Of a stretch of DNA of 48,755 nucleotides, positions 186 through 34,350 are shown piece after piece (positions within the stretch are counted from its first letter, which is position 1; each line of letters begins with the position of its first letter). Source of the DNA: Armatimonadota bacterium. Its GTDB lineage: Bacteria; Sysuimicrobiota; Sysuimicrobiia; Sysuimicrobiales; Humicultoraceae. The stretch spans positions 1,250-50,004 of the forward strand of contig JBBIOM010000012.1 of assembly GCA_037443365.1 (NCBI GenBank), in the 5' to 3' direction. The notes under the pieces were generated by a model. The model searched no databases and was not told the origin of the DNA. It was given only the letters and a program-made list of their open reading frames with translations. The translations under genes and the position numbers were made by a program.

Positions 186-1220
186 GTGAGAACCTTTGTC
201 GCCGTGCTGGCCGCGACGATGGCCGTCGTGGTGCTCGCCACCGGACTGGGCCTTGCCCAGCCGGCCAGGCAGACCACCTGGAAGTTCACCCTGGACTTCA
301 TCGTGCAGGGACCGCAGGCGCCCTTCCTGGTCGCCCTGGAGAAGGGCTACTACGCCAAGGAAGGCTTGAACATCACCATAGACCGCGGCTTCGGATCGGC
401 CGACGCCGTGAGCAAGATCGCCGGCGGCGCGTACAACCTGGGCTACGCCGACATCAACTCGATGATCGAGTTCAACGCCAGGAACCCAGGCCGGGAACTG
501 GTGGCCATCGCGGTCCTGCTGAACGAGCCGCCCTTCTCGATCATCACGCTGCGCCGGGAAGGCATCACGCGCCCGATCGAGCTCTACGGGAAGAAGCTTG
601 GCGCGCCGGCCGGCGACGCCCCGCGCCGCCTCTGGCCGCTCTTCGCCCGCGCGGTGGGCATGCACCCCGCCTCGGTGGAGTGGATCACCATGGACGTGCC
701 CCTGCGCGAGCCGATGCTGGTGCGGGGTGACGTCAACGCCATCTCCGGCTTCTACTTCACCTCGTTCATCAACCTGAAGGCGGCGCGCGTGGATCCGGCC
801 GAGATCATCGCGTTCATGTACAACGACCAGGGCCTCCCCCTGTATGGCAACGCCATCATGGCACCGCCCTCCCTGCTCGAGCGGGAGCCCGAGGCGGTCC
901 GTGGGTTCCTGAGGGCGTTCATACTCGCGCTGAAGGACACGATCACCAACCCCGCGGAGGCCATCGCCGTGGTCAAGCGGCGCGACCCGCTGCTGCGCGA
1001 GGACGTCGAGCTCGAGCGGCTGCAGCTAGCGCTGCGGCACAACATCCTGACAAGGGACGTCCGGGCCAACGGCTTCGGCGTGATCAAGGGCGAGCGCCTG
1101 AGCCGCTCCATTGACCTGGTGGCCGACGCGTTCGGCCTGCCGACGAAGCCCGCCTGGCAGCGTGTGTTCACGGACAAGTTCCTTCCTCCAAAGGCCGAGA
1201 GGATGCTTCCAGAGAGGTAG
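186..1220 (+). CDS. ABC transporter substrate-binding protein, NMT1/THI5-like (NitT/TauT family)
   Basis: Signal peptide; TLDF..QGPQAPF.VALEKGYY..EGL.I.I.RG.GS motif; GTG start with SD AAGGAGGG. Confidence 0.9.
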   Translation: MRTFVAVLAATMAVVVLATGLGLAQPARQTTWKFTLDFIVQGPQAPFLVALEKGYYAKEGLNITIDRGFGSADAVSKIAGGAYNLGYADINSMIEFNARNPGRELVAIAVLLNEPPFSIITLRREGITRPIELYGKKLGAPAGDAPRRLWPLFARAVGMHPASVEWITMDVPLREPMLVRGDVNAISGFYFTSFINLKAARVDPAEIIAFMYNDQGLPLYGNAIMAPPSLLEREPEAVRGFLRAFILALKDTITNPAEAIAVVKRRDPLLREDVELERLQLALRHNILTRDVRANGFGVIKGERLSRSIDLVADAFGLPTKPAWQRVFTDKFLPPKAERMLPER

Positions 1221-1226
1221 AACAGC

Positions 1227-1245
1227 GCTGGCCGGACTGGCCAGC
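1227..1245 (+). other. Intergenic stem-loop after the SBP gene
   Basis: GCTGGCC-ggact-GGCCAGC perfect 7-bp stem; such stems are common after ABC SBP genes. Confidence 0.4.
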
Positions 1246-1281
1246 CAGACGCACGGGGAGTCAACCTAGAGGAGTCAATCC

Positions 1282-2777
1282 ATGAGAAGACTGGGGCTCG
1301 AACGGGAGCTCGTAGATAAGAACGTTTATGCGCGCGCGGTAGGACGCTTCCGCGACGCCGGGATCGTGTTGCCCACCTTCGCGGAGCTGACGGATCCGGC
1401 CCGGATACCCGCGCGCATCCAGAAGGCCCTCTCCGGCGCAGACCCCGATGCTCCGCATCCGCTGAACCTCTTCAGGGTGCACTGGTTCAACGGCGCCGGC
1501 CGCGCCGCTCGCGTCGGGGTGCCCGAACACGTGGTGCTCCCCAAGGCGCTCACCGGCGTGGACGCGCGCATAGTGGTGGCGCTCGGCGACCGTTTCCCGA
1601 TGATCGGCGCCCACAAGGTGCTGGCCGCCTACGGGTGCCTGGCCCCGCGGATAGTCACCGGGCAGTTCGATCCCACCGCCCACCGCGCGGTCTGGCCGTC
1701 CACCGGCAACTACGCCCGGGGCGGCGTGGCCATCTCGCGCATCATGGGATGCCGGGGAATCGCCGTGCTGCCCCAGGGCATGAGCCGGGAACGTTTCGAG
1801 TGGCTCGAGCGCTGGATAGCCGATCCCGCGGACATCATCCGGACGCCCGGCACCGAGAGCAACGTCAAGGAGATCTATGACAAGTGCGCGGAGCTGGAGC
1901 GCGATCCGGCCAGCATCATCTTCAACCAGTTCTGCGAGTTTGGGAACCACCTGGTGCACTACCTGTGCACGGGCAGGGCGCTCGGGGTCGTCTTCGAGTC
2001 GCTTCAAACCGGCGAGCCGGGTCTGCGGCTGCGCGCCTTCGTGTCGGCCTCGGGCTCGGCCGGCACGCTGGGCGCCGGTGACTACCTCAAGGAGCGCTAC
2101 GGCGCGAAGATCGTGGCCATGGAGGCCCTCGAGTGCCCGACGATGCTCTACAACGGCTTCGGCGAGCACAACATCCAGGGCATCGGTGACAAGCACATCC
2201 CCTTGATCCACAACGTGACGAACACCGACGTCGTGACCGCGGTCTCGGATCAGAGCACCGACCGCCTCGACGTGCTGTTCAACACCCCGGCAGGACGTGA
2301 GTATCTGGTAAGCCGGCAGGGCGTGCCGCCCTCGGTGGTGGATCTGCTGCCGGCGCTGGGGCTCTCCAGCATCTGCAACGTGCTGGGCGCGATCAAGACC
2401 GCTAAGTACTTCGGGATGGGGCCCGAAGACGTGGTCGTCACCGTGGCCACCGACGGCGCGGCGATGTATGCCACCGAGAGGGAGAAGACGCTCCGGAAGC
2501 ACTTCCCGGCGGGGTTCGACGCGGTCGCAGCCGGCGCGACGTTCGCCGCGCACCTCGGCGGCGTCACCTGCGATCACCTGCTGGAGACGACGCGCGTGGA
2601 CAGGGACCGCATCTTCAACCTGGGCTACTTCACCTGGGTGGAGCAGCAGGGGGTCTCGCTCGAGGAGTTTGCGGCCAGGCGCGATCAGCGGTTCTGGACC
2701 GAGATGCGCTCGATCATCCCTGTCTGGGACGCGATGATCGAGGAGTTCAACGCCCAGACAGGAACGGCCCGCGCCCT

Positions 2778-2781
<4 letters not shown>
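1282..2781 (+). CDS. PLP-dependent enzyme, fold type II (cysteine synthase/TrpB-like), unknown substrate
   Basis: GAHK (PLP lysine), PSTGNY, GSAGTLG phosphate loop, IQGIG; SD GAGGAG. Confidence 0.85.
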
Positions 2782-4133
<1,352 letters not shown>

Positions 4134-4179
4134 GAGAATACATGGGCCGAACGGCTAGACCAATAGGGAGGGGAAGTTA

Positions 4180-5133
4180 ATGAGAAGCTTTCTCGGTAGG
4201 GATATCCTGTCGCTCAAGGAGTTCGAGCGCAACGAGTTCTTCCGGGTCTTCCAGGTGGCGGACGACCTGAAGCCCTACGCGCGGGACCGGAGCAACGGCG
4301 ATCTGCTCAAGAGGAAGACCCTGGTCACCGCCTTCTACCAGCCCAGCACGCGCACGCGCCTGGCCACCGAGGCGGCCATGCTGCGGCTGGGGGGCAGCGT
4401 GCTCGGGTTCTCGGACGCCAAGATGACCCGCGCCGGCGACTTCTATCAGGAGTCCATCAAGGACACGGTGCACATGCTCGAGTACTACGGCGACGTCATC
4501 GCCATGCGCCACTTCCAGCAGGGCGCCCCGCACGAGGCCGCGCGCTGGGCCTCGGTGCCGGTCATCAACTGCGGCGACGGCTGGGGAGAGCACCCTACCC
4601 AGGTGCTGATTGACCTCTACACGATCTACAAGGAGCTGGGCACGCTGGACGGGCTCAAGGTGCTGTGCGTGGGCGACATGCGCATGCGCACCATGCACTC
4701 CATCCTCTACGCGATGTCGCAGTTCGACATGGAGGCGTTCGTGGTCTCGCCGCCCGAAATGTCGCTGCTGCCCGAGTTCAAAGCCGAGCTGGACCTGCTC
4801 AACGTGCGCTACCGCGAGGTCGCCACGGCCGAGGAGGTCGTCGGCCAGGCGGACGTCATCTACATGGAACCCGTGGTCCAGCCCGACTACACGAAGTCGC
4901 GCGACGAACGAACGGGCGATTTGGGGCTCACCCCGGCCGCCTACAAGATCACGCGCCAGATGCTGCGCGAGCGGGGGAAGAGCGGCTCGATCGTGCTGCA
5001 CTCCCTGCCGCGCATGGACGAGCTTCCCCCGGACGTTGACGTCACGCGGCATGCCCGGTACTGGACCGAGGCGTTCAACGGCGTGGTGGTCCGCATGGCG
5101 CTGCTGGCCCTGGTATTGGGCGCGGCGGAATAG
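4180..5133 (+). CDS. Aspartate-carbamoyltransferase-like transcarbamylase with altered acceptor site
   Basis: STRTR, MRH, INCGDG.GEHPTQ, GD...RTMHS, LHSLPR; lacks the KGES and TRxQ motifs of true PyrB. Confidence 0.85.
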   Translation: MRSFLGRDILSLKEFERNEFFRVFQVADDLKPYARDRSNGDLLKRKTLVTAFYQPSTRTRLATEAAMLRLGGSVLGFSDAKMTRAGDFYQESIKDTVHMLEYYGDVIAMRHFQQGAPHEAARWASVPVINCGDGWGEHPTQVLIDLYTIYKELGTLDGLKVLCVGDMRMRTMHSILYAMSQFDMEAFVVSPPEMSLLPEFKAELDLLNVRYREVATAEEVVGQADVIYMEPVVQPDYTKSRDERTGDLGLTPAAYKITRQMLRERGKSGSIVLHSLPRMDELPPDVDVTRHARYWTEAFNGVVVRMALLALVLGAAE

Positions 5134-5144
5134 GAGGGACCAGG

Positions 5145-6122
5145 ATGCAGACACATCTACGCGGACGCGACCTCATCACGCTGCAGGAGTGGACCAAGGA
5201 GGAGATCGAGACCGCGCTGGACGTGGCCCTCGACCTCAAGCGCAGCCGGGCCCTCGGCCAGCCGCACGCCATCCTGCGCGACAAGGTGCTCGCGATGTTG
5301 TTCTTCTTCTCGAGCACGCGCACGCGCGCCTCGTTCGAGGCCGGCATGGCGCAACTCGGCGGGCACGCGCAGTTCATCGAGAGCCGCACCACACAGATCG
5401 CCCACGGCGACACCGCCAAGGAGATAGGCGAGATCCTGGGGCGCTACAACGACGGCATCGCGATCAGGCACGTGGACTGGCGGGCGGGCAACAAGTACAT
5501 CCGCGAGGTGGCCCAGGCCAGCCGGGTCCCGGTGCTCAACATGCAGTGCGACATCTATCACCCCTTCCAGGCGCTCGCGGATCTGCTGACCATCATCGAG
5601 AAGAAGGGCGACCCGCGCGGGAAGACCATCACCGTGAGCTGGGCGTACGCCGCCAGCTACCAGAAGCCGATCAGCGTGCCGCAGAGCCTGATCCTGCTGA
5701 TGCCCCGCTTCGGCATGAACGTGCGCCTGGTGCACCCGCCCGGATTCGAGCTCATGCCCGAGATCCTCGAGCAGGCCAGGGAGAACGCCCGCCGCGCCAA
5801 GGTGGGGTTCGAGATCATGGACGACTTCGAGGCCGGCTTCCGCGGCACGGACGTCGTCTACGCGAAGAGCTGGGGCGCCCTGCTGACCGTCAAGAACGAC
5901 GAGGAGGGCGCGAAGCTGTCCGCCAGGTACAAGGACTGGATCGCCGACGAGCGCCGCATGGCCATGGCCGGTGAGGACGCGATCTACATGCATCCCCTGC
6001 CCGCCGACCGCAACATCGAGGTCAGCGACGGCGTGATTGACGGCGCGCAGTCGGTCGTCTACGACGAGGCAGAGAACCGGCTGCACGGTCAGAAGGCCGT
6101 GATGGCCCTGACCATGAGCTAG
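5145..6122 (+). CDS. Ornithine-carbamoyltransferase-family protein, YgeW/knotted type
   Basis: SSTRTR, HPFQ, WAYAASYQKPISVPQS, YAKSWG, YMHPLPADR, EAENRLH; SD GGAGG. Confidence 0.85.
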   Translation: MQTHLRGRDLITLQEWTKEEIETALDVALDLKRSRALGQPHAILRDKVLAMLFFFSSTRTRASFEAGMAQLGGHAQFIESRTTQIAHGDTAKEIGEILGRYNDGIAIRHVDWRAGNKYIREVAQASRVPVLNMQCDIYHPFQALADLLTIIEKKGDPRGKTITVSWAYAASYQKPISVPQSLILLMPRFGMNVRLVHPPGFELMPEILEQARENARRAKVGFEIMDDFEAGFRGTDVVYAKSWGALLTVKNDEEGAKLSARYKDWIADERRMAMAGEDAIYMHPLPADRNIEVSDGVIDGAQSVVYDEAENRLHGQKAVMALTMS

Positions 6123-6153
6123 CGCGCGGCGCGGCAGCAAAGGGGGATTGAAC

Positions 6154-7104
6154 ATGGCCAGACGCACCGCCGTGGTCGCGATAGGCGGGAACTCACTGAT
6201 CAAGGACTCAAAACGCCAGACGGTACAGGACCAGTACGAGGCCGCGGGCGAGACCTGCCGGCATGTAGCATCCATGATCAAGGACGGCTGGGATGTGACG
6301 ATCGGGCACGGCAACGGCCCCCAGGTCGGCTTCATCCTGCGCCGCTCGGAACTGGCGGCCCACGAGCTGCACGAGGTGCCGCTCGACGTCTGCGGCGCCG
6401 ACAGCCAGGGCGCCATCGGCTACGCGCTCCAGCAGAACCTGTACAACGAGTTCCGCCGGCTCGGCCTGAACAAGAGCGCCGTCACCGTGGTGACCCAGGT
6501 CGAGGTGAGCGCGGACGACCCCGCGTTCCGAAACCCCACCAAGCCGATCGGCTCGTTCATGGACGCCGAGCGCGCCCGGCGCCGGCGTGAAGAGGAAGGA
6601 TGGACCGTGGTCGAGGACGCCGGACGGGGCTGGCGGCGGGTGGTGCCTTCACCTGCACCGATCCGCATCGTCGAGGAAGAGGCGGTCCGGCGCCTCATAG
6701 GCGAGGGCTTTGTCGTGATCACCGTCGGCGGGGGCGGCATCCCCGTGGTGTCCGATGCAAGTGGCAACCTGCGAGGCGTGGCCGCGGTCATAGACAAGGA
6801 CCTGGCGTCGTCGCTGCTGGCCACGGTCATAGGCGCCGACCTCTTCGTGATAACCACCGCGGTCGAGCAGGTCGCGCTCAACTTCGGCAAGCCCAACCAG
6901 CAGGCGATACGGCAGATGACGCTGTCGCAGGCCAGGGAGTACCTGGCCGAGGGCGTGCACTTCGCGAAGGGCAGCATGGCCCCCAAGATGGAGGCGGTCA
7001 TAGGATACCTGGAGCGGGGCGGGGGCGAGGCGCTGATAACCAACCCCGAGAACCTCGAGCGGGCGTTGCGCGGCGAGACCGGCACGCGCATCACCGCGGG
7101 TTGA
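6154..7104 (+). CDS. arcC: Carbamate kinase
   Basis: AIGGNSL, HGNGPQVG, QGAIGY, NPTKPIG, EDAGRGWRRVVPSP, GGGGIPV, AVIDKD, GSMAPK; ATG 6154 preferred over TTG 6148. Confidence 0.95.
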   Translation: MARRTAVVAIGGNSLIKDSKRQTVQDQYEAAGETCRHVASMIKDGWDVTIGHGNGPQVGFILRRSELAAHELHEVPLDVCGADSQGAIGYALQQNLYNEFRRLGLNKSAVTVVTQVEVSADDPAFRNPTKPIGSFMDAERARRRREEEGWTVVEDAGRGWRRVVPSPAPIRIVEEEAVRRLIGEGFVVITVGGGGIPVVSDASGNLRGVAAVIDKDLASSLLATVIGADLFVITTAVEQVALNFGKPNQQAIRQMTLSQAREYLAEGVHFAKGSMAPKMEAVIGYLERGGGEALITNPENLERALRGETGTRITAG

Positions 7105-7117
7105 AAGCGGCGGCGGG

Positions 7118-9766
7118 TTGAAGGCACTGGAGTTCGAGCTCAACGGGCATAGGGTCTCGCTGGAGGTCCGCGAGGACGCGAGCCTGCTGGAAGTGCTCCG
7201 CGAGCAGTGCGGCCTGACCTCGATGAAGAACGGGTGCGCGCCGGAGGGCTCGTGCGGCGCGTGCACGGTACTGCTCGATGGCAGGGCAGTGGTGTCGTGC
7301 GCCCAGCCGGCCACCCGGGCCGCGGGCCGGCGCGTCACCACCCTGGAGGGGCTCCCAGAGGAGCACCGCGCCCAGTGGGCGGACTGCTTCGTCGCCACGG
7401 GCGCGTCGCAGTGCGGGTTCTGCACCCCTGGCATCGTGATGAAGGCCGAGTCGCTCCTCGCGCGCAATCCCGATCCGTCGCGCGAGGAGATCACCCGGGC
7501 CCTGGCCGGCAACCTCTGCCGGTGCACCGGCTACGTCAAGATCATTGACGCCATAGGGCACGCGGCCGCGGCGCGGCGAGGGAAGCCGGTTCCATTGCCC
7601 GATCGCGGCGGCCGGGTGGGGACGCGCGCCGCGCGCTACCAGGGCCGCGACCTCGCGCTGGGGCAGAAGCAGTTCGTGGCCGACATGCGCGTCCCGGGCA
7701 TGCTCCACGCCGCGGTGCGGTGGTCCGATCACCCCAGGGCCAGGGTGCTGCGGATCGACGCCTCGAAGGCGCGCGCCGCTCCCGGCGTCGTCGCCGTGGC
7801 CACGTGGCGCGACGTTCCCGGAGAGCGCCGGGTGGGGTTGATCTTCAACGACTGGCGGCAGTTCGTGGCCGAGGGCGAGACCACGAGCTACGTCGGGGAC
7901 GTCCTGGCGGTCGTGGCGGCCGAGAGCCAGCACGAGGCCCGCGCGGCCGCGGCCCAGGTCGAGGTGGAGTACGAGGTGCTTCCTCCGGTCACCGATCCCT
8001 TCGAGGCGCTGGCAGAGGGCTCTCCCCAGATACACGCGATGGGCAACCTGCTCTCCACAACGAAGGTGCAGCAGGGCGACGTGGAGGCGGCGCTGGCGGG
8101 CGCGGCGTGCGTGGCCACCGAGACCTTCCGCACCCAGGCGATAGAGCATGCCTTCCTTGAGCCCGAGGCCTGCCTGGCGGTGCCCTCGGGCGACGGCGGA
8201 GTGCACTTCTTCTCGCAGGGGCAGGGCATCTGGGAGGATCGCCGTCAGGTGGCGTCGGTGCTGGGCCTCCCCCTGGAGAGGGTCCGGGTCACGCTTCACT
8301 CGAGCGGCGGCGGCTTCGGCGGCAAGGAGGACCTGAGCATCCAGGCGCACGCCGCGTTGCTGGCGGTCGCAACCGACCGGCCCGTGATGCTGGCGCTGTC
8401 GCGGAGGGAGAGCATACGCTTCCATCCCAAGCGCCATCCCATGACCATGGAGTACACCGTGGGCGCCGACGCCGAGGGTCGCCTGCTGGCGGTGCGCGCG
8501 CGCATCACGGGCGACACCGGCGCCTACGCCAGCGTCGGGGACAAGGTCCTGGAGCGGGCCGCCGGGCATGCCTGCGGTCCCTACCGCGTGCCGAACGTGG
8601 ACGTCGAGAGTAGGGCGGTCTTCACCAACAACCCGCCCTCGGGTGCCATGCGCGGGTTCGGGGTGAACCAGGTCTGCTTCGCCATGGAAGCGATGATGGA
8701 CATCCTGGCCGCGCGGACCGGGCTGGACCGCTGGGAGATCCGCTGGCGCAACGCGCTGGATGTGGGCGATACCTTCGCCACAGGGCAGCGGCTGGGTCAG
8801 GGCGTGGGCCTCAAGAAGACGCTCCTTGCCGTGCGCGACGCGTTTCGGTCGGCGCGCTACGCCGGGATCGCCTGCGCGGTGAAGAACACCGGCATCGGCA
8901 ACGGCCTGACCGAGTACGGCAGGGCGATACTGCGCGTCGAGGAGGATGGTGCGGTCACGCTGTTCCACTCGTGGACCGAGATGGGGCAGGGCGTCAACAC
9001 CGTCCTGGCGCAGGTGGCCTGCGAGGAGCTGGGCCTCGAACTGGGTCGCGTGCGCGTCGTGGTGGACACGGTGCGCGATCTGGATACCGGTGAGACCACG
9101 GCGTCGCGCGCCACGGTCCTGGGCGGGTTGGCGGTCATCGAGGCCGCTAAGCGCCTGCGCGCCGCGCTCGGGGAGGATCTGCCCGCAGACGCCGCAGGCG
9201 TCCATGCGCGCCTTGGGACGCTGGCCGGGCAGGAGTTCCGCGGGGAGGTCGTGATAGACTGGACGTCCAAGCCGACCCCGGGCGCAGCCGACCAGGTCAC
9301 GCACTTCGCGTACGGCTGGGCCACCCAGGTCGCGATCCTCGACGACGAAGGCCGCCTGGCCAGGGTGGTCGCATGCCATGACGTCGGCCGCGTCATGAAT
9401 CCGACCCTGCTCGAAGGGCAGATAGAGGGGTCCATCCACATGGGGATGGGCTATGCGCTTTCCGAGGAGCTGGTGCTGGAAGGCGGCGTGCCCATTACCG
9501 ACACCCTCAAGTCGCTGGGCATCGTGCCCCCGAGCGCGATGCCCAAGGTCGAGTGCATCTTCGTCGAGGAGTTCCAGCCCGAGGGTCCGTACGGCGCCAA
9601 GGGGGTCGGCGAGATCGGCAACATCCCCACGGCCGCGGCGATCGCAGGAGCGCTGTGGGCCTACGATGGCATCCGGCGGACCCGGCTGCCCATGAAGGAT
9701 TCCCCTGCGGCGCAGGGGCTCGCGCCCGCGAAGGCGCGGCCTGGGCGCCCCGACAGGCCGGGCTGA
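7118..9766 (+). CDS. Xanthine-dehydrogenase-family molybdoenzyme, fused 2x[2Fe-2S] + Moco domains (architecture of selenium-dependent Xdh/XdhD)
   Basis: [62 protein letters not shown]; no FAD domain; TTG start. Confidence 0.9.
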   Translation: MKALEFELNGHRVSLEVREDASLLEVLREQCGLTSMKNGCAPEGSCGACTVLLDGRAVVSCAQPATRAAGRRVTTLEGLPEEHRAQWADCFVATGASQCGFCTPGIVMKAESLLARNPDPSREEITRALAGNLCRCTGYVKIIDAIGHAAAARRGKPVPLPDRGGRVGTRAARYQGRDLALGQKQFVADMRVPGMLHAAVRWSDHPRARVLRIDASKARAAPGVVAVATWRDVPGERRVGLIFNDWRQFVAEGETTSYVGDVLAVVAAESQHEARAAAAQVEVEYEVLPPVTDPFEALAEGSPQIHAMGNLLSTTKVQQGDVEAALAGAACVATETFRTQAIEHAFLEPEACLAVPSGDGGVHFFSQGQGIWEDRRQVASVLGLPLERVRVTLHSSGGGFGGKEDLSIQAHAALLAVATDRPVMLALSRRESIRFHPKRHPMTMEYTVGADAEGRLLAVRARITGDTGAYASVGDKVLERAAGHACGPYRVPNVDVESRAVFTNNPPSGAMRGFGVNQVCFAMEAMMDILAARTGLDRWEIRWRNALDVGDTFATGQRLGQGVGLKKTLLAVRDAFRSARYAGIACAVKNTGIGNGLTEYGRAILRVEEDGAVTLFHSWTEMGQGVNTVLAQVACEELGLELGRVRVVVDTVRDLDTGETTASRATVLGGLAVIEAAKRLRAALGEDLPADAAGVHARLGTLAGQEFRGEVVIDWTSKPTPGAADQVTHFAYGWATQVAILDDEGRLARVVACHDVGRVMNPTLLEGQIEGSIHMGMGYALSEELVLEGGVPITDTLKSLGIVPPSAMPKVECIFVEEFQPEGPYGAKGVGEIGNIPTAAAIAGALWAYDGIRRTRLPMKDSPAAQGLAPAKARPGRPDRPG

Positions 9767-9777
9767 GGAGGCACGCG

Positions 9778-11103
9778 ATGCACCTTGCCCTGACCGGCGG
9801 CACCGTGCTCGTCTCCCTGGAGGAGCCCGCGCTGGTCCGGGCCGACGTGCTGATCGAGGGGGGCAGGGTGCGAGCGCTCGGGCAGGCCCCGGAGGGTGTC
9901 CCCCGCCGTGACTGCTCGGGCTGCCTGCTCATCCCCGGAAATGTCTGCGCGCACACGCACCTGTACTCGGCCCTGGCGCGTGGGATGCCCTATCGCCTGG
10001 ATCCGCCTTCCAACTTCACTCAGAACCTCCAACGCATCTGGTGGCGGCTGGATCGCGCCCTGGACGAGGAGACGGTGCGCACGTCGGCCCTGGCCGGCGC
10101 CATGGGCGCGCTGCTGTCCGGCACGACCACGGTGGTGGACCACCACGCTTCGCCGAATGCCATCTCGGGCTCGCTTGACGTCATCGCCGACGCCCTCGAG
10201 GAGATCGGGCTGCGCTCGGTCCTGTGCTACGAGACGACTGACCGCGACGGCCCCGAGCGGGCACGCGCTGGGATCGAGGAGAACCGGAGGTTCTTGAGGA
10301 CGCACCGCCCCTTGGCTGCGGGGCTGGTGGGCGCGCACGCGTCGTTCACTCTCTCGGAAGACACGCTGGCCGCCTGCGTCGAGGTCGCGCGCGCGGCGCG
10401 AGCGGGCGTGCACATCCACGTGGCCGAGGACCGCGCCGACCAGCGCGACTCCCTGGCGCGCTTCGGCCAGCGCGTGGTGGCGCGGCTGTCCCTGGCCGGC
10501 GCTCTCGACGAGCGGGCGGTCCTGGTCCACTGCGTTCACGTGGACGATACCGAGATCGGGTTGATTCGCCAGTCGGGCGCCGCGGTGGCGCACAACGCGC
10601 GCTCCAACATGAACAACTCGGTCGGGCGCGCGCGCGTGGGTCTGCTCGGGGACCGTGTGGTGCTCGGCACCGATGGCATCGGCGCCGACATGTTCGCCGA
10701 GTCAGCGGTCGCATACTGGCGAGGGCGCGAGGACGATCTCTCGCTGGGCTTCACCTGGCCGCTGCAGCGCATGGCCGCGGGCGCGCGCATGGCCGGGCGG
10801 ATCCTAGGCGAAGAGACGCTGGGACGCATACAGGCCGGTGCGCCGGCGGATGTCGCGGTGCTGGACTACGCGACCCCAACGCCGCTGCACGCGGGCAACC
10901 TGGCCGGTCACTGGCTCTTTGGCCTATCGGCGCTGCACGTGCGCGACGTGCTGGTGCGCGGCGAACTCGTGGTGGCCGACCGACGGCTGACGCGGGTGGA
11001 TCAAGACGGGCTCGCCGCGCAGGCCAGGGCGCAGACGGAGCGGCTGTGGCGCCGCCTCGAGGAGATTGGGCCTCACGAGTTCGAACCAGCGGGAGGAAGG
11101 TAG
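9778..11103 (+). CDS. ssnA: SsnA-like metal-dependent amidohydrolase
   Basis: [73 protein letters not shown] before ATG 9778. Confidence 0.85.
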
Positions 11104-11105
11104 CC

Positions 11106-12119
11106 ATGGCTTCCGGCAGCGGGCGCGTCGCCCTGTACCTGCAGGACAAGCATCCCATCCGTGAGGGAATGGAGTACGTGCGCTACGCCGAGGAGCGCGG
11201 GTTCGAGGCGGTGTGGCAGGCCGAGAGCCGGCTGGTGCGCGAGGCCACGATACCGCTGGCCGCGTTCGCCGCGGTCACCCGGCGGATCAAGGTCGGGACC
11301 GGGGTCATCAGCCTCTGGACGCGCAACGTGGGGCTGATGGCGGCCACGTTCTCCACCCTCGACGACCTGGCGCCGGGCCGGGTGATGCTGGGGATCGGCG
11401 CCTGGTGGGAGCCGCTGGCCACCAAGGTGGGCGTGGACCGGCGCAGGCCTCTAGAGGCGATGCGCGAGGTGGTCCTGGTCACGCGCCGGCTGCTGGCGAT
11501 GGAGCGGGTGACGTTTCACGGCGAGTTCGTGCACGTCACCGACATCGAGCTCGACATCGTGCACGGCGATCGCTCGCCCAAGAAGGTGCCGATCTACATC
11601 GGCGCCACCGGGATGAAGATGATGGCCCTCGCCGGCGAGATCGCCGACGGGGTGCTGCTCAACTACCTGGTAAGCCCTGCCTACAACGCGGCCGCGATGG
11701 AGGCCCTTGCCGCGGGCGCGGCCCGGGCCGGGCGGCGCGTCGAGGACATCGACCGGCCCCAGCTCGTGGTCTGCTCGCTGGACAGGGACCGCTCGGTGGC
11801 GCTCGACCGCGCGCGCGAGCTGGTGACGCAGTACCTGGGCCAGCAGCCGCACATCATGAAGGCCAGCGGGGTGGACCCGTCGCTGCTGGACGAGATCGGC
11901 AGGGTGCTCACCTGGCCGGCCGGGCCAGAAGAGATCCGCCGGGCGATGCGCCTCGTGCCCGACGAGGTGGTGCAGATGATCACAGCATCGGGCACCCCTG
12001 AGGAGTGCCGCGCCAAGGTGCGCGAGTACGCGGCCGCCGGGTGCACCTGCCCCATACTCTATCCCCTGGGAGACGATGTGCGCGCCATGATTGACGCCTT
12101 CGCGGAGGGACGGCTTTGA
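11106..12119 (+). CDS. LLM-class (luciferase-like) flavin/F420-dependent oxidoreductase, Mer-like
   Basis: [63 protein letters not shown]. Confidence 0.85.
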
Positions 12120-12922
12120 TCGAGCCCGCAGCCACGGAGGCCTTTGTCCGTCTCGACGGCGTCACGCTCGACTACCAGCACGAGGGCCAACCCGTCCGCG
12201 CCGTCGAGGACGTCAGCCTCAACGTGCGGCAGGGCGAGTTCGTGGTGGTGGCCGGGCCCAGCGGCTGTGGAAAGACCACGCTGCTCAAGGTCCTGGCCGG
12301 CCTGGTCGTACCCGGCAAGGGCAGCGCCAGCGTGGGGAGCGTGCAGGTGCGCGGACCCCAAAAGAACGTGGGCATGGCGTTTCAGAACCCGATCCTGCTG
12401 CCCTGGCGCAAGGTCATTGACAACGTCCTGCTCCCGATGGAGGTCGTCGCCCCGCACAAGGCGCGGTTCCGTCGGCACCGCGCGGAGTACGTCGCGCAGG
12501 CGCGGGAACTGCTCGCCTCGGTCGGCCTGGAGGGGTTCGGCGACCGCCATCCCTGGCAGATCTCAGGCGGGCAGCAGCAGCGGGCCAGCCTGTGCCGCGC
12601 CCTGATCCACAACCCTCAGATCCTGCTGCTGGACGAGCCCTTCGGCGCGCTGGACGCCTTCACGCGGGAGGAGCTCTGGCAGGTCCTGCAGGCCCTGTGG
12701 ATGCAGCGACGGTTCACGGTGCTGCTGGTGACCCACGACCTGCGTGAGGCGGTGTTCCTGGCGGATACGGTGTACGTCATGAGCACGCGTCCCGGGCGGA
12801 TCGTCTCGCGCACGCCCGTGGACATCCCCCGTCCGCGCACGCTGGAGGACACCTTCGGCGCGCAGTTCACCGATACGTATCACGAGATCAGGCGTCAGAT
12901 AGGCGAGGTGCTGGGACGATGA
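12116..12922 (+). CDS. NitT/TauT-family ABC transporter ATP-binding protein
   Basis: Walker [46 protein letters not shown]. Confidence 0.93.
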
Positions 12923-13695
12923 GGCGCGCTGGCCTGCTGGCCGAGTGGCTTCCTCCGCTGGTCGTGATCGTGCTCGCCTTCGCAATCTGGGAGGCCGGGG
13001 TCGCCCTGCTGCGCGTGCCCGATTTCATACTGCCCGCGCCCAGCAAGGTGTGGATGGCCCTGCTCAGATGGCGCGAGGCCATCTGGTTCAACGCGTCGCA
13101 GACGCTCTACACGACCCTTGTGGGATTCGCCATGGCGCTTGTCGGGGGAATGGGGCTCGGACTGGCCATCGGGTACTCCACCCTGGTTTACCGCGCGCTC
13201 TACCCACTGCTTGTGGGGTTCAACAGCGTGCCCAAGGCCGCGATCGTGCCCGTGCTCGTCATCTGGTTTGGAATCGGCACGGTGCCGGCGATCCTCACGG
13301 CGTTTCTCATCTCGTTCTTCCCCATAGTTGTGAACGTGGCGACCGGCCTGGCCACGCTCGAGCCCGAACTGCAAGACGTGCTCCTCTCGCTGGGCGCATC
13401 CAAGCGTGAGATCTTCACCAAGGTCGGCATCCCGCGGTCGCTTCCCTACTTCTTCGCGTCGCTGAAGGTGTCGGTCACGCTGGCGTTCGTGGGCGCCGTG
13501 ATATCGGAGACCGTGGCCTCGAACAAGGGCATCGGGTACCTGATGATCGCGGCCAGCTCGCGCTTCGAGGTGCCGCTCGTGTTCGCCGGCCTGATCGTGG
13601 TCGCCGCCATGGGCGTGGCGCTGTTTGCGTGCTTCGCGGTCATCGAGCACCGGCTCACGGGTTGGGCCTATCGGGGACCGGCGCTGACCGCCTGA
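12919..13695 (+). CDS. NitT/TauT-family ABC transporter permease
   Basis: Hydrophobic; ILPAPS, VPKAAIVP, WFGIG, FFPIVVN; ATGA coupling to the ATPase gene. Confidence 0.92.
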   Translation: MRRAGLLAEWLPPLVVIVLAFAIWEAGVALLRVPDFILPAPSKVWMALLRWREAIWFNASQTLYTTLVGFAMALVGGMGLGLAIGYSTLVYRALYPLLVGFNSVPKAAIVPVLVIWFGIGTVPAILTAFLISFFPIVVNVATGLATLEPELQDVLLSLGASKREIFTKVGIPRSLPYFFASLKVSVTLAFVGAVISETVASNKGIGYLMIAASSRFEVPLVFAGLIVVAAMGVALFACFAVIEHRLTGWAYRGPALTA

Positions 13696-13719
13696 TACTA
13701 ACGCCGAAGGGGTGCAGCC

Positions 13720-14346
13720 GTGGGAAAGCCGGCGCTGGTCATCGTTGACGCGCAGAACGACTCCTGCCTGCCGGGAGCGCCTTTCGAGGTGCGCGGCGCC
13801 TCGGGCGTGCTTCCCAACATCCGGAGGCTGCTCGACGCCTTCCGCAAGCACGGCCTGCCGGTCGTCCACGCGCTGAGGGAGTACCGGGCAGACGGCGCGG
13901 ACATCGAGATAACGCGGCGCGACCGGTTCGTGCGGGCCGGCGGCGCGTTCGTCCCGGGCACGCGCGGGCACGCGCCTGCGGACGGGCTCGAGCCGGCCCC
14001 CGGCGAGACCGTGGTGCCCAGGCAGCGCTGGAGCGCCTTCCACAAGACCGACCTGGAAGGCGCGCTTCTGGCGGCCGAGGTCGAGATCGTGGTGCTGGCC
14101 GGGATGGATACCGTGGGCAGCATACGGTGCACCGCGTTCGATGCGCTGGCCTGTGACTTCGAGGTCGTGGTGGCCTCCGATGCGACCGCCTCCGGCGACG
14201 CCGAGGCGCACAAGGCCAACCTGCGCGACATGGAGGCGTACGGCATCGAGGTCTCCTCGGCCGATCACATCACGTGGGCCCTGCCCAAGCGGTTGGGCCG
14301 GCGGCTCAAGGCGCGGCGCGACGAGGCGAAGTCCGGCCAGTCCTGA
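13720..14346 (+). CDS. Isochorismatase/cysteine-hydrolase-family protein with atypical catalytic residues
   Basis: LVIVDAQND, RWSAF..TDL, AGMDTVGSIRCTAFDA, VASDATAS. Confidence 0.8.
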   Translation: MGKPALVIVDAQNDSCLPGAPFEVRGASGVLPNIRRLLDAFRKHGLPVVHALREYRADGADIEITRRDRFVRAGGAFVPGTRGHAPADGLEPAPGETVVPRQRWSAFHKTDLEGALLAAEVEIVVLAGMDTVGSIRCTAFDALACDFEVVVASDATASGDAEAHKANLRDMEAYGIEVSSADHITWALPKRLGRRLKARRDEAKSGQS

Positions 14347-14605
14347 CCTGGGTCATCCCTCAGGAGCAGGGGCGTATCCAGGGTAACCTCCTTCCGGCGG
14401 CGTTGACCAACCGCACGTCCGCGGTCCACAGCTCGCATCCCAGCAGTTCGGCAGAGGCCAGGAGACAATTCGATACGGTGACAGGCAAGATGTGACGTCG
14501 TCAAGCACATGCCCGCCGACCGCCTGATCGAGTATTCCATTGCTGCCGGTCTTGGTCGTGTGGCGCGTCTTTGGTTGAAGGGCACGCTGTTTCACCCGGC
14601 ATCTG

Positions 14606-14829
14606 ATGCTGGCTGTTAGGCACACAGCGACCCGAAGATCCTCGGGGGTACGCCTGTGTTGGTAGGCGACCGCGTCCCCGTTCGGATTCTGTTCGACTGC
14701 CTGGAAGCTGGCGACCCGCTGGAGTGCTTCCTCGATCAATATCCGACCGTCAGCCGCGAGCAGGCGCTCGCCTCCCTCGGGACGCCTACAGGGTCAGTGG
14801 GACCGCTCGAACCTCCTGAGCGCCTCTAG
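14606..14829 (+). pseudogene. DUF433 (VapB45-like) antitoxin remnant, frameshifted or start-less
   Basis: Frame from 14623 reads HSDPKILGGTPVLVGDRVPVRILFDCLEAGDPLECFLDQYPTVSREQALASL; in-frame TAG at 14617-14619; ATG 14606 is in another frame. Confidence 0.7.
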
Positions 14830-16128
14830 AATCGCCCGCGCGCCGAACTCGACCGCCTCGACCGGAATGCGTTCGTCGGCCGCGTGCACTAATCGCGAGA
14901 AGTTCATCCCCTCGGGCAGGCGCATCGGCAGGAAGCCGTAGGTCTGGATTCCCAGCCGGGCGAAGAACCGCCCATCGGTGGCGCCGGGCATCAGATACGG
15001 CACCGGGATGCCGTCAGGATCCTCGTCGCGCAGAATCCCGGACAGCAGATCGAACATCCCCATGTCGGGTGACGCCGGACCGGGGTCGTGGCGGACCACG
15101 CCCATCTCGACGACCTCAATCAGAGCAACGCCGGCGCCCAGGATTGATCGCAGCTCGGCGATCAGGTCATCCGGACCGCACCCCGGCAGCAGCCGGCCGT
15201 CCATATCGAGTGTGATCTCGCTGGGGATCACGTTGAGCTTCTCGCCGCCGCGCACGATCGTGGCGTTGACGGTGTTGCGCAGCAGCGGGGAGAACGTCCG
15301 GCCGCGCTCGCCCATCAGCGCGAGCGCGCCGTCCGCGCGACGCGGGTCCAGCAGCGAGCGCAGGATCCAACTGGACGGCGGCCGCAGCGCGCCTGCAATC
15401 GCCTCTATCATCTGCCGGACCACCGGGGTCACGCGCACGGGCAGGTAGCGCCGGTCCATTGTCCTCAGTATGCGTCCGAGCCCTGCCATGGCGCCGCCGC
15501 GCATCGGCAGCGCGCCGTGCCCGCCGGGCCCGCGTATGGTCGCTCTCACCCAGCAGATCTCCTTCTCGGCGACCTGGATGGGATAGAAAGTACGGCCGCC
15601 GACCGGCATCGTGAACCCGCCGAACTCGCCGATGGCGTAGCGGATCCCGTCGAACAGCCCAGCGTGGCGCTCCACCAGGAACCTGGCGCCATCGTCGCCA
15701 TTGGCTTCCTCGTCGCTCAGGATCGCCAGTACGATGTCTCCGGCTGGCCGCAGGCCCTCGGCCCGGGCGCGCAGGAAAGCAGAAAGCAGCATTGCCACGC
15801 CGCCCTTCATGTCCAGGGCGCCGCGGCCCCAGACGAACCCGTCCACAAGCCGGCCCTCGAACGGCGGGTGCTGCCAGACCTGTCCCGCGGTGGTTACGAC
15901 GTCCACGTGCCCGTAGAGCAGTAGCGGCGGCGCGGTGCCTTCCCCGGCCAGGCGCGCAATCAGGTTGGGACGCTCCGGGTCGTGGGCGAGCAGCGTGGTC
16001 TCGAACCCGGCAGCGGTCAGCAGGTCGTTGATGTAGCCGACGCAGGCGGCTTCGCGGCCCGGGGGGTTGGTGGTGTCGAACTGGATCAGCCGCCGCAGCA
16101 GCTCGGCGGGGTGCTCGTGAACGGACAC
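14794..16128 (-). CDS. M20/M25/M40-family metallo-hydrolase (ArgE/DapE/Acy1-like)
   Basis: DTTNPPG, YGHVDVV, WGRGALDMKG, SDEE, GGHG, NVIP, GATDGRFF, HAADERI; SD AGGAGG. Confidence 0.92.
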   Translation of the reverse strand: MSVHEHPAELLRRLIQFDTTNPPGREAACVGYINDLLTAAGFETTLLAHDPERPNLIARLAGEGTAPPLLLYGHVDVVTTAGQVWQHPPFEGRLVDGFVWGRGALDMKGGVAMLLSAFLRARAEGLRPAGDIVLAILSDEEANGDDGARFLVERHAGLFDGIRYAIGEFGGFTMPVGGRTFYPIQVAEKEICWVRATIRGPGGHGALPMRGGAMAGLGRILRTMDRRYLPVRVTPVVRQMIEAIAGALRPPSSWILRSLLDPRRADGALALMGERGRTFSPLLRNTVNATIVRGGEKLNVIPSEITLDMDGRLLPGCGPDDLIAELRSILGAGVALIEVVEMGVVRHDPGPASPDMGMFDLLSGILRDEDPDGIPVPYLMPGATDGRFFARLGIQTYGFLPMRLPEGMNFSRLVHAADERIPVEAVEFGARAILEALRRFERSH

Positions 16129-16150
16129 GGAATCCTCCTGGGAATGTGGC

Positions 16151-18553: not shown

Positions 18554-19944
18554 GCCAGAGCGCTCCCTGCCCGGCGTCCGGCGATGCGCAGGGCAACGCG
18601 CCGGCCCTCCCAGGCTATCGCGGCCTCATCGGCGCCGACCAGGCGCGCGTCGCGCACCACCGCCCGTCCTTCCACGAACAGGTGCCGCACGCGCCCCGGC
18701 GAGCAGTGCACGAGCGCGGCTACGGGATCGGCCTGGGCGCCGGCGTGCTCCAGCCCATCCACCCCGAATATGGCCACATCGGCCCGACACCCAGGCCGCA
18801 GCGACCCGATGTCGTCGCGCCCCAGGCAGTCGGCGCCGCCCCGCGTGGCCACGCGCAGCGCCTCGCGCGCGCTCAGGGCCCGGGCGCCGCCGGCGCGCGC
18901 GACCAGCAGGCCTGTGCGCGCCTCCTCCAGCAGGTGCCCGCCGTCGTTGGAGGCGGATCCGTCCACGCCCAGGCCCACGCGCGCGCCCGCATCCAGCAGC
19001 AGCCGCACCGGTGCTATGCCTGATCCCAGGCGCAGGTTTGAGGTCGGGCACCAGGCCACGCCGGTCGCGCTCGACGCGATCTGGGCGACGTTCCCATCCG
19101 AGAGGTGCACGCAGTGGGCCAGCCAGACATCAGGCCCCAGCCAGCCGAGATCGGCGAGCAGGTCCACGGGCCGCTTGCCGTACGTGGCGCGGCAGTAGGC
19201 GTCCTCGTCCTGGGTCTCGGCGATGTGCGTGTGCAGCCGCACGCCGAGGCGCCGGGCCAGCGCCGCGGAGTCCCGCATCAGGCGGCCGGTGACCGAGAAC
19301 GGCGAGCAGGGCGCCACCGCGATGCGCAGCATGGCGCCGGGCGCGGGATCGTGGAAGCGCCTGACGGCATCCTCTGTCTGCGCCAGGATCGCGTCCGCGT
19401 CCTGCACGATCGCATCCGGCGGCAGCCCGCCCGCGGACTCGCCCAGGTCCATCGATCCCCTGCAGGGATGGAAGCGGAGCCCTATCGCGCGGGCGGCCCC
19501 GATCTCGGCTTCCAGCAGGTCCAACCCGTTGCTCTTCCTTGGAAAGACGTAGTGGTGGTCGGTGCTGGTCGAGCAGCCAGAGAGCGCCAGCTCGGCCAGC
19601 CCCACGCGCGCGGCCGCGAACACCCACTCCTCATCCACCCCGGCCCAGATCGGGTAGAGCGCGCGCAGCCATCCGAAGAGCCCCTGGTCCTGGGCGCGTG
19701 CGCGCGTCAGCGTCTGGTACAGGTGATGGTGCGCGTTGACGAGGCCGGGCAACGCAACCGTACCGCGCCCGTCCACGCGCTCGAGGCCGCCGGGGGCAGC
19801 GCCGGGCGCCGCCTCAGGCGGAGACCCTTGTCCGACCCATGTGATCACCCCGTTCTCGATCAGGAGCGAACCGCCGGGAATCTCGGTCCCCGCGTCGTCC
19901 ATCGTGACGACGACGTCGCACGCCTCGATCAGGATCCTGCTCAT
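18550..19944 (-). CDS. 8-oxoguanine-deaminase-like amidohydrolase (AtzB/TRZ family)
   Basis: [80 protein letters not shown]; start MSRILIE at 19944. Confidence 0.88.
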
Positions 19945-20414
19945 GCAGTCCGCCCGCGCAGGCGCTCGGCGGCCAGTCGCACCGCGTCGAGGATCTTCAC
20001 GTAGCCGGTGCACCGGCACAGGTTGCCCGAGAGCGCCTCGCGCACCTCTGCCTCGTCGGGCGACGGATTGCGCGCGAGCAGGTCGGCCGCGGCCACCACC
20101 AGCCCGGGCGTGCAGAAGCCGCACTGCACCGCGCCTGCCTCCAGGAACGCCTCCTGCACCGGGTGCAGGCCCTCGGGTGATGCCAGGGCTTCCACGGTGC
20201 GCACCTCGCGCTCGTGCGCCTGCGCGGCCAGCACCAGGCAGGAGCACACCAGGTCGCCGTCCAGCCACACCGAGCACGCGCCGCACTCGCCCTGCTCGCA
20301 CCCGTTCTTGGAGCCGAGCAGCCCCAGGTGCTCGCGCAGGACGTGCAGCAGGCTGGCTTCGGGTGCCGGCCTGGCCTCGCGCCACTGGCCGTTGACCTTG
20401 AGGCGAATCAGCAT
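19941..20414 (-). CDS. Xanthine dehydrogenase 2Fe-2S subunit (CoxS/PucE type)
   Basis: [27 protein letters not shown]; start MLIRLKVNG at 20414. Confidence 0.93.
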
Positions 20415-21301: not shown

Positions 21302-21314
21302 CTCTCGTCAACGT

Positions 21315-21342
21315 TTCAACAGGCGGTCGGCTGCTTTCCTGC
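21315..21342 (-). promoter_or_regulatory. Putative promoter GCAGG-N20-GAA for the xdh operon
   Basis: Minus strand GCAGGAAAG...GTTGAAAC, 13 nt before ATG 21301. Confidence 0.4.
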
Positions 21343-21377
21343 CGCGGCGTGCCGCCCGTGCGCCCCGGATGCGCTGC

Positions 21378-21403
21378 GCAGGAACCGGCGACGGCCCGCA
21401 GAA
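21378..21403 (+). promoter_or_regulatory. Putative promoter GCAGG-N18-GAA for ade (probably leaderless)
   Basis: GCAGGA...GAAAT ends 10 nt before ATG 21414; no SD. Confidence 0.45.
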
Positions 21404-21413
21404 ATCCAGTCCA

Positions 21414-34335: not shown

Positions 34336-34350
34336 CGCTCCGGCGACCCG

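Follow-up and report, generated by a model that had tools for sequence, protein, structure and literature searches.

A predicted variant of reductive uric-acid degradation via 2,8-dioxopurine in an operon of contig JBBIOM010000012.1

Which pathway is encoded by an operon that carries the first enzymes of reductive uric-acid degradation, and which proteins could take over the later steps when the usual genes for them are not in it? This question is raised by twelve co-directional genes in a 48,755 nt stretch of contig JBBIOM010000012.1 (assembly GCA_037443365.1, positions 1,250-50,004; the contig is called C12 and the whole stretch the window, and coordinates given without a contig name are those of the window). 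In this operon a fused molybdenum hydroxylase and an SsnA-type amidohydrolase stand together with a luciferase-like oxidoreductase (LLM), two pyridoxal phosphate (PLP) enzymes, here named PALP-A and PALP-B, and two carbamoyltransferases, CT1 and CT2. We give a probability of about 0.6 to the reading that the products of this operon degrade uric acid reductively via 2,8-dioxopurine, in a variant of the known pathway with the steps proposed below, the role of every enzyme being a prediction. Judged by sequence, it appears to be a genuine and widely conserved variant of that pathway and not a new kind of system.

The operon and its reductive urate core

Elucidation of the reductive urate pathway dates only from 2025 and was achieved in gut bacteria (Li et al. 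2025, PMC12507026; Liu et al., bioRxiv 10.1101/2025.04.24.650524). As described in the text of Li et al. (PMC12507026), XdhD turns urate into 2,8-dioxopurine, reduction by YgfK (UacX in C. difficile) and ring opening by SsnA lead to ureidomethylhydantoin, HyuA yields 2,3-diureidopropionate, YgeW (or UacY) and YgeY strip the two ureido groups, and YgeX makes pyruvate from diaminopropionate. In the text of Liu et al. (10.1101/2025.04.24.650524) ATP is made by YgeW together with the carbamate kinase YqeA, and the pathway is linked to SelD and YqeB/YqeC. The order of ureido removal differs between the two texts.

Twelve forward-strand open reading frames (ORFs) with a gene-like, high third-position GC occupy 186-14346 of the window, which has about 70% G+C and comes from a source genome (G000) of 2.22 Mb in 69 contigs with an estimated completeness of 97.7%. 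With start codons chosen by the preceding Shine-Dalgarno-like sequence, the intergenic distances are, in order, 61, -4, 46, 11, 31, 13, 11, 2, -4, -4 and 24 nt, the largest being 61, and 4-nt overlaps are found at three junctions (2778/2781, 12116/12119 and 12919/12922); the twelve genes are packed as expected for a single transcription unit. The window is immediately preceded by a further gene for an NMT1 binding protein (C12:87-1127, 119.6 bits in Pfam), and the unit therefore comprises at least 13 genes, with its promoter outside the window. Families were called with Pfam and NCBIfam profile searches, bit scores being compared with the curated cut-off.

Three enzymes form the core by which the operon is placed in the reductive urate pathway. 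The first is a fused 2Fe-2S and molybdopterin hydroxylase (7118..9766, +) with Fer2, Fer2_2, hammerhead and MoCoBD_1/2 domains in Pfam, which scores 979.8 against a cut-off of 830.45 for TIGR03311, the “selenium-dependent XDH” (xanthine dehydrogenase; XdhAC/DOPDH) type. The second is the ring-opening amidohydrolase of the SsnA type (9778..11103, +; ATG 9778 after GAGGAGG), which is 39% identical to E. coli SsnA (residues 14-441) and is the best match of that protein in the genome. The third is a carbamate kinase of the YqeA/ArcC type (6154..7104, +; TIGR00746, 372.7 against 358.25), 50% identical to E. coli YqeA. The fused hydroxylase and SsnA would represent the signature pair of the reductive urate (2,8-dioxopurine) pathway. 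The initial annotation had described twelve co-directional, mostly coupled genes and taken them for a variant of the xdh-ssnA urate cluster; the ORFs and profile searches returned the families as it had named them, and its placement of the cluster is borne out by the hydroxylase and carbamate kinase scores.

Compared with the E. coli cluster (xdhD-ygfM-ygfK-ssnA-hyuA-ygeW-yqeA-ygeY-ygeX; PMC12507026) and the C. sporogenes 2,8-dioxopurine pathway (10.1101/2025.04.24.650524), the operon shares a molybdenum cofactor hydroxylase adjoining SsnA and a YgeW-related carbamoyltransferase followed by a carbamate kinase, while a HyuA-type hydantoinase is present in the genome and purine-funnelling genes are found nearby. 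In contrast, the operon contains an F420-type LLM and no YgfK/UacX, a second carbamoyltransferase derived from aspartate carbamoyltransferase (ATCase) and no M20 hydrolase YgeY, and two unrelated PALP-fold proteins and no YgeX; moreover, the hydantoinase is unlinked, YqeB/YqeC were not found, and uptake relies on an ABC system instead of a permease. In genome-wide profile searches the best matches fell far below the cut-offs for YgfK (TIGR03315, 259 against 835, a GltD-like part), YgeY (TIGR03526, 95.3 against 321.5) and YgeX (TIGR03528, 40.5 against 532.25), the latter two outside the window, and tblastn of E. coli YgeX and YgeY on the genome gave matches of 24-25% identity only, elsewhere. 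The canonical genes reported as missing by the initial annotation are thus missing from the 97.7%-complete genome in the case of YgfK, YgeX and YgeY; HyuA is missing from the operon, and a hydantoinase of that type is encoded on contig C13 (see below).

A search for PALP-A in the contigs of one genome per species revealed at least 589 stretches that encode a relative, from which 80 loci were kept, many of them stopping at contig ends; their gene content was established by tblastn with the window proteins and with E. coli K-12 proteins (locus L113), and 21 related genomes were compared as well. Across the 80 loci PALP-A is 65-93% identical, and the labels cover Actinomycetota (25), Pseudomonadota (17), Chloroflexota (9), Acidobacteriota (8), Myxococcota (4), Gemmatimonadota (3), Eisenbacteria (2), Sysuimicrobiota (2), Armatimonadota (Ca. 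Nitrosymbiomonas, 1), NC10 (1), Planctomycetota (1) and unclassified bacteria (7). PALP-B was found in 71 of these loci, SsnA in 53, the fused XDH in 47, CT1 in 35, CT2 (at least 60% identical) in 27, carbamate kinase in 26, the LLM in 23, HyuA-like genes in 18, YgeW-like in 13, YgeY-like in 11, YgfK in 6 and a YgeX-like gene in one. The ranking is much the same in the 42 loci with at least 9 kb on each side (PALP-B 39, SsnA 32, XDH 31, CT1 22, CT2 19, carbamate kinase 17, LLM 15, HyuA-like 9, YgeX-like 0). The LLM, the PALP pair and CT1, which had been singled out among the extra genes of the operon, are therefore conserved together with SsnA and XDH. Several cluster types can be distinguished: YgfK and a YgeW-like gene accompany the PALP pair in L041 and L072, the former also with a YgeY-like M20, and a bare set of XDH, SsnA, PALP-A and PALP-B is found in L060, L063 and L076. 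PALP-A and a CT1-type gene co-occur in the same 11 of the 21 related genomes, which belong to four genera.

The reductase, the carbamoyltransferases and the PLP pair

The place after SsnA is occupied by the gene for a Mer-like LLM of the F420-dependent group (11106..12119, +; PF00296, 237.7 bits), our candidate for the 2,8-dioxopurine reductase. All nine of its PDB matches at E<=1e-10 are F420 enzymes. For a UacX-type, PydA-like reductase (PF01180) only a partial match of 60.6 bits was found, outside the operon. By analogy with Mer, which transfers a hydride to a C=N carbon, the LLM may reduce 2,8-dioxopurine, the hydride probably coming from F420H2, which may be scavenged. Elsewhere the genome encodes an F420H2:NADP oxidoreductase (Fno; G000:C5:79753-80361, 189.2 against 149.8).

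All 23 loci with the LLM also carry PALP-B, 22 of them CT1, 22 SsnA and 17 CT2, compared with two that have a YgeY-like and none that has a YgeW-like gene. The same substitution of an LLM for YgfK beside SsnA has been noted for Chloroflexota in the text of Li et al. (PMC12507026), as a bioinformatic observation on gene neighbourhoods only, whereas the LLM loci in our set are labelled Actinomycetota (16), Sysuimicrobiota (2), Armatimonadota (1) and unclassified bacteria (4), with none from Chloroflexota. The neighbourhoods in that paper were coloured by Pfam only, with PF00291 as “YgeX” and PF00185 as “YgeW”, and its text resolves neither the PALP pair nor the two carbamoyltransferases, figures and supplements being outside this comparison; the text of Liu et al. 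(10.1101/2025.04.24.650524) contains no mention of F420, luciferase or Chloroflexota. The branch had been called undescribed in the initial annotation, which holds only in part: the LLM-for-YgfK substitution is already in print for Chloroflexota, and the text of the literature searched (figures and supplements may show more) yielded no prior description of the PALP-A/PALP-B module, nor of a double carbamoyltransferase system or an ATCase-derived CT1 with the double phosphorolysis that it implies. Such a cluster in a small genome without markers of pyrimidine and F420 biosynthesis was not found in the literature searched either.

Only three OTCace-fold genes are present in the genome, of which the third is a true ornithine carbamoyltransferase (OTC), 67% identical to E. 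coli ArgI. CT2 (5145..6122, +) is a short protein of 325 aa that shares 36% identity with E. coli YgeW. A maximum-likelihood tree (38 rows) joins the CT2 clade (100/98) with the YgeW clade (together 100/99), apart from the OTCs. Its best NCBIfam match is an OTC subfamily at 255.7, and the YgeW model gives 198.7 against 453; the label “YgeW-type” given to it earlier is hence apt in the sense of a sister clade of YgeW, and less so for the profile of that family. The motifs DxxxSMG and HCLP, which we take to be the ornithine-site motifs of OTC, read KSWG(AL) and HPLP in 26 of 26 CT2 members. CT2 probably does the job of YgeW.

CT1 (4180..5133, +) scores 248.5 against 236.95 for TIGR00670 and is the sole gene in the genome above the PyrB cut-off, which makes it an annotation trap. 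It resembles PyrB in fold, in an equivalog-level profile score and in three motifs: STRTR and HPTQ, for carbamoyl phosphate, and LPR. In alignment with solved ATCases, STRTR, HPTQ and LPR are kept (the first two in 33 of 33 family members), whereas the 80s loop is altered and the TR(V/I)QKER of ATCases reads EPVVQPDY, or EPV(V/I)Q(P/A)DY throughout the 33 members. The TRxQxER motif is presumably the one that holds E. coli R229 and Q231, residues that bind the aspartate side chain. Within the ATCase group of the tree, CT1 members make up a clade of their own (100/100, on a long stem of 1.25) that includes neither E. coli PyrB nor four PyrB-like genes from relatives; the tool warned of long branches meeting there. 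The gene stays beside the PALP pair with 71-93% identity across phyla.

It would be possible to read the operon as a mosaic of housekeeping genes, with CT1 as PyrB and with CT2 and the carbamate kinase serving citrulline or arginine fermentation, and no role in purine degradation. The equivalog-level score of CT1 as the only such gene in the genome speaks for this reading, which we nevertheless regard as scarcely credible. PyrF (PF00215) gave no match in the 97.7%-complete genome, compared with 14 of 14 control genomes, and a full PyrD was not found in the genome, where PF01180 is represented by its weak partial match; CT1 is therefore not serving pyrimidine synthesis. As to the fermentation part, CT2 lacks both OTC motifs and a true ArgI-like OTC is encoded elsewhere. 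The replaced TRxQxER motif in all 33 members, the separate long-stem clade and the lack of PyrF together lead us to reject CT1 as a housekeeping PyrB. The source genome is seemingly without de novo pyrimidine synthesis altogether, as no OMP (orotidine monophosphate) decarboxylase and no canonical PyrB were found and the DHO_dh match is weak and partial; relatives G011, G013, G014 and G019 also have no gene above the PyrB cut-off.

Returning to the reductive urate reading, CT1 is predicted to take off the remaining ureido group phosphorolytically and in this way to replace YgeY, because it resembles an enzyme of alpha-N-carbamoyl acids that has lost the motif for the second carboxylate of aspartate. 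This suggests that both ureido groups are phosphorolysed. The gene content of L100, in which CT2 is combined with a YgeY-like M20 and no CT1, fits the assignment of the YgeY role to CT1. YgeW-like and YgeY-like genes travel together in seven loci.

PALP-A (1282..2781, +; PF00291, 40 bits) is a fold-type II PLP enzyme of 499 aa with a CysK/CBS-like core and N- and C-terminal helical extensions, and PALP-B (2778..4133, +; PF00291, 134.2 bits) a fold-type II PLP enzyme of 451 aa that resembles threonine synthase, serine racemase and threonine deaminase. The best PDB sequence matches of PALP-A are cysteine synthase, CBS and beta-cyanoalanine synthase, and the same three are the nearest folds to its AlphaFold2 (AF2) model (pLDDT 94.8), with a TM to target of about 0.75-0.86 and 20-29% identity. 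The AF2 model of PALP-B (pLDDT 93.1) has threonine synthase, serine racemase and threonine deaminase as nearest folds. Both proteins are about 100-150 aa longer than their solved relatives. Conserved elements (invariant or at least 90%) are H111-K112, S140-T-G-N143 and G258-S-A-G-T262 in PALP-A and SGSHK139, S173-C-G-N176 and G284-G-G-A287 in PALP-B, which we take to be the PLP lysine (K112; K139), the Asn (carboxylate) loop and the Gly-rich phosphate loop, respectively; all three are kept, as in fold-type II PLP enzymes. PALP-B has in addition an N-terminal Cys-rich element in which C10, C13, C27 and H38 are invariant. The pair is translationally coupled, the start of PALP-B overlapping the stop of PALP-A by 4 nt, an arrangement that recurs in 36 of the 54 loci in which both genes are complete, with starts placed by script.

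Like YgeX, a 2,3-diaminopropionate ammonia-lyase, the pair belongs to the PLP fold-type II superfamily and is placed at the last step of the cluster. Unlike YgeX, it consists of two proteins of different clades (CysK/CBS-like and ThrC/racemase-like) that are not matched by TIGR03528, and BLASTP with E. coli YgeX revealed no significant similarity for either (E 0.084 and 0.54). No YgeX above the cut-off was found in the 21 related genomes. We infer that the PALP pair takes YgeX's place in the terminal conversion of a C3 amino acid to pyruvate, because it sits where YgeX would be expected in every cluster type and a YgeX-like gene is found in only one of the 80 loci; in L094 and L095, for instance, the order is PALP-A, PALP-B, YgeY (72%) and YgeW (63-65%). 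PALP-A exceeds 70% identity with more than 120 protein clusters, and 417 protein representatives were obtained at E<=1e-30, many of them fragments. The only names found for it were “PLP-dependent enzyme” or an automatic “cysteine synthase” label, and the ESM Atlas returned generic “PLP-dependent enzyme” clusters only.

Hydantoin ring opening, transport and neighbouring genes

The HyuA-type D-hydantoinase of the genome is encoded at C13:16227-17585 (TIGR02033, 540.6 against 393.25) and is 37% identical to E. coli HyuA over the full length. It is 37-46% identical to an amidohydrolase present in 15 of the 80 PALP-A loci, and the hydantoinase gene adjoins PALP-A in L029, L031 and L032, being directly upstream in L029 and L032. 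Homologues with at least 43% identity are present in all 11 cluster-bearing relatives, next to PALP-A in G008 and 3.5 kb upstream of it in G009. The occurrence of the gene elsewhere in this genome and inside the clusters of sister genera suggests that HyuA has been moved out of the operon and not replaced. Beside the hydantoinase lies a gene for a CN-hydrolase, carbamoylase or beta-ureidopropionase-like (G000:C13:17598-18470; PF00795, 206 bits), by which the work of CT1 or CT2 could alternatively be done through hydrolysis.

The last gene of the operon encodes an isochorismatase-fold protein (13720..14346, +; PF00857, 137 bits), which the initial annotation had listed, as an atypical cysteine hydrolase, among the genes present instead of HyuA and the other canonical ones. 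As a ring-opening or ureido-cleaving hydrolase in the place of HyuA it would have some appeal, as its position is kept in G004, G005 and G006, the genomes of the same genus with both genes on one contig (9.2-9.5 kb from CT1), and as enzymes that cleave ureido or amide groups (N-carbamoylsarcosine amidase, biuret hydrolase and RutB) are among its PDB relatives. However, at E<=1e-20 the gene was found in six of seven congeners, in none of 13 other relatives, some of which have the cluster, and, by tblastn, in none of the 80 PALP-A loci. In alignment with 3hu5 (one sequence) the catalytic Lys and Cys read Arg and Ser, the positions being those which we take to belong to the Asp-Lys-Cys triad of isochorismatase-like hydrolases; another Cys is present three residues past the Ser. 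Given also the hydantoinase in the genome and within the clusters of sister genera, we consider it very improbable that this protein replaces HyuA, and regard it as a genus-level accessory that is dispensable for that purpose.

The remaining genes of the operon encode ABC transporter components: a substrate-binding protein of the NMT1/THI5-SsuA type, the second of two tandem copies (186..1220, +; PF09084, 108.4 bits; GTG 186 after AAGGAGG), a TauB/SsuB-like ATPase (12116..12922, +; PF00005, 106.7 bits; NF008421, 227 bits, under the cut-off) and a permease (12919..13695, +; PF00528, 87.2 bits). A search of the window and 1.5 kb upstream against Rfam gave no match at the gathering score, with purine/xanthine riboswitches, the “NMT1 motif” included, among the elements sought. 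A simple promoter and terminator scan of 13600-14900 revealed nothing; in the 447 nt spacer that separates the operon from a convergent one (14347-14793) there is neither an Rfam match nor, by this simple scan, a terminator-like hairpin.

This second operon is also devoted to purines, and with an adjoining adenine deaminase the purine genes span 14794-23135. It comprises an 8-oxoguanine-deaminase-like amidohydrolase (18550..19947, -; NF006055, 625.4 against 532) and the subunits of a xanthine dehydrogenase, namely a PucD-type Mo subunit (16151..18553, -; TIGR03196, 884.4 against 783.65), a 2Fe-2S subunit (~19980-20417, -; 47% identical to E. coli XdhC by tblastn) and an FAD subunit (20408-21301, -; 27% identical to E. 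coli XdhB by tblastn; PF00941, 146.2 bits). The adenine deaminase lies at 21462..23135 (+; TIGR01178, 585.9 against 472.5). The last gene of the convergent operon encodes an M20 peptidase that is not of the YgeY type (14794..16128, -; PF01546, 100.8). A YgeY identity was considered for it and rejected, as the match to YgeY covers 150 aa at 29% identity (E 6e-7) and NF005913 is the best-scoring model (368 against 382); the protein could conceivably act as a carbamoylase. Further downstream, a gene of the Asp/Glu/hydantoin racemase family lies beside a 402-aa ORF without a Pfam or NCBIfam match (33637-35559, -), the two being embedded among genes for peptide-type ABC transporters and an IclR regulator.

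Two further gene sets were encountered in PALP-A loci of other organisms. In the proteobacterial loci L099 (2578-5989) and L103 (2308-5750) an Fe-S L-serine dehydratase (SDH_alpha/beta) and a protein of ~686 aa are encoded within the cluster, between a HyuA-like gene and XDH. The sole recognisable part of the ~686-aa protein is a 4Fe-4S dicluster motif; its family occurs in eight of the 80 loci and is a candidate for a further type of reductase or for an electron carrier. Seven loci (L034, L039, L046, L050, L053, L058 and L079; five labelled Chloroflexota and two Actinomycetota) combine the PALP pair with a protein of ~730-800 aa that has a transketolase-like N-terminal domain, with a class I/II aminotransferase in five of the seven and a Bmp/PnrA-type ABC system in most.

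The proposed route and its rivals

In the route proposed here, purines or urate would be taken up by the NMT1-type ABC system, and adenine deaminase, the 8-oxoguanine-deaminase-like protein and the PucD-type XDH would channel purines to urate, as suggested by homology and conserved linkage. The fused hydroxylase would strip the C6 oxygen from urate to give 2,8-dioxopurine (step 1), which the Mer-like LLM would reduce with F420H2 in the place of YgfK/UacX (step 2), with Fno possibly re-reducing F420 from NADPH. The pyrimidine ring would then be opened by SsnA (step 3) and the hydantoin by the unlinked hydantoinase of C13, leading to 2,3-diureidopropionate (step 4), whose two ureido groups may both be phosphorolysed by the YgeW-like CT2 and by CT1, the latter standing in for the M20 hydrolase YgeY (step 5). 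One carbamate kinase could make ATP from both carbamoyl phosphates, two per urate as compared with one (step 6), and PALP-A and PALP-B would finally turn 2,3-diaminopropionate into pyruvate and ammonia instead of YgeX (step 7). The work of the PALP pair may be split between a racemase and a lyase, or between beta-replacement to serine and a dehydratase, or the two proteins may form a heteromer.

Several observations weigh against this reading or against single steps of it, beginning with the core. The hydroxylase shares only 26% identity with E. coli XdhD, and whether it acts on urate or on another oxopurine is judged from family and context; SsnA lies 9 bits below the NF005540 cut-off (435.1 against 444, for the longer ORF) and also under that of TIGR03314 (414.8 against 455.5). 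These values, together with NMT1/THI5-type binding proteins that have no assigned ligand, would be compatible with an operon for the degradation of another N-heterocycle, such as xanthine directly, 8-oxoguanine, a pterin or a pyrimidine, and not of urate via 2,8-dioxopurine. We think this quite unlikely, since the hydroxylase exceeds the TIGR03311 equivalog cut-off, the full downstream set of ureido-cleaving enzymes suits the C3-diureido product of the purine route, and the neighbouring genes take adenine, 8-oxoguanine or guanine, and xanthine towards urate. According to the text of Li et al. (PMC12507026), moreover, the XdhD of C. difficile is likewise ~26% identical to that of E. coli.

For the reductive urate reading itself, selenium and F420 raise further difficulties. 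A single TGA in frame within the SelD gene (G000:C21:18065-18988, 379.7 bits) suggests that SelD itself contains selenocysteine and that the source organism decodes this amino acid. Although SelD is present, the YqeB profile gave no match in the genome, with only a partial tblastn match (36% identity, residues 91-265, contig C3), and YqeC gave no tblastn match in the genome; the selenium dependence of the hydroxylase is therefore uncertain. In case of the LLM, the 16 best NCBIfam matches are F420-dependent LLM families, all under their cut-offs (best 176.3 against 276). Neither CofD nor CofH, markers of F420 biosynthesis, was found by profile search in the genome, and CofD is above the cut-off in just one of eight genomes of the genus, which leaves the LLM cofactor unexplained, scavenged F420 or another flavin being the options. 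With Fno and an F420-type LLM and without CofD and CofH, the source organism may be a cofactor scavenger. The division of labour between the carbamoyltransferases is put in doubt by L031, which has CT1, CT2 and a YgeY-like M20, and by nine loci with CT1 and without CT2, some of them at contig ends.

The last observation of this kind concerns the PALP pair. In L072 a YgeX-like gene (36% identical) lies directly beside it, and the pair is therefore not a strict substitute of YgeX. This locus can be accommodated by a reading in which the pathway is the same, with PALP-A acting on albizziin (beta-ureidoalanine) or another beta-substituted alanine and PALP-B finishing to pyruvate: beta-elimination or replacement by water would free urea or ammonia and give aminoacrylate or serine. 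The nearest folds of PALP-A (the beta-replacement enzymes CBS, CysK and beta-cyanoalanine synthase) and of PALP-B (threonine deaminase, serine racemase and threonine synthase) agree with such a scheme, and the Fe-S L-serine dehydratase inside the clusters of L099 and L103 hints at a serine intermediate and hence at a possible route through serine. On the other hand, this dehydratase occurs in two loci only, and a locus with CT1 and CT2 (or with YgeW and YgeY) already has enzymes for the two ureido groups, so that diaminopropionate is the substrate for which one is needed. On balance we consider the use of albizziin unlikely, and prefer diaminopropionate as the substrate of the pair.

Taken more broadly, the loci may represent a variant spread over many phyla, in which a Mer-like reductase uses F420H2, carbamoyl phosphate is harvested twice and a new two-protein PLP module, for example a diaminopropionate racemase plus a lyase, or a ureidoalanine lyase, forms the end of the pathway, with scavenged F420 in the present organism. 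This picture as a whole is tentative, and we put it at rather less than even odds.

PALP-A and PALP-B represent a very conserved pair with undescribed chemistry, at least 589 stretches in species-representative genomes encoding PALP-A, and the LLM raises the question whether an F420-type enzyme of this family can dearomatise 2,8-dioxopurine. The hydroxylase-SsnA signature pair appears to be combined with different downstream enzymes in phyla of soil, subsurface and other environments. If the roles proposed here are true, a re-tooled offshoot of aspartate carbamoyltransferase would double the ATP yield per urate.

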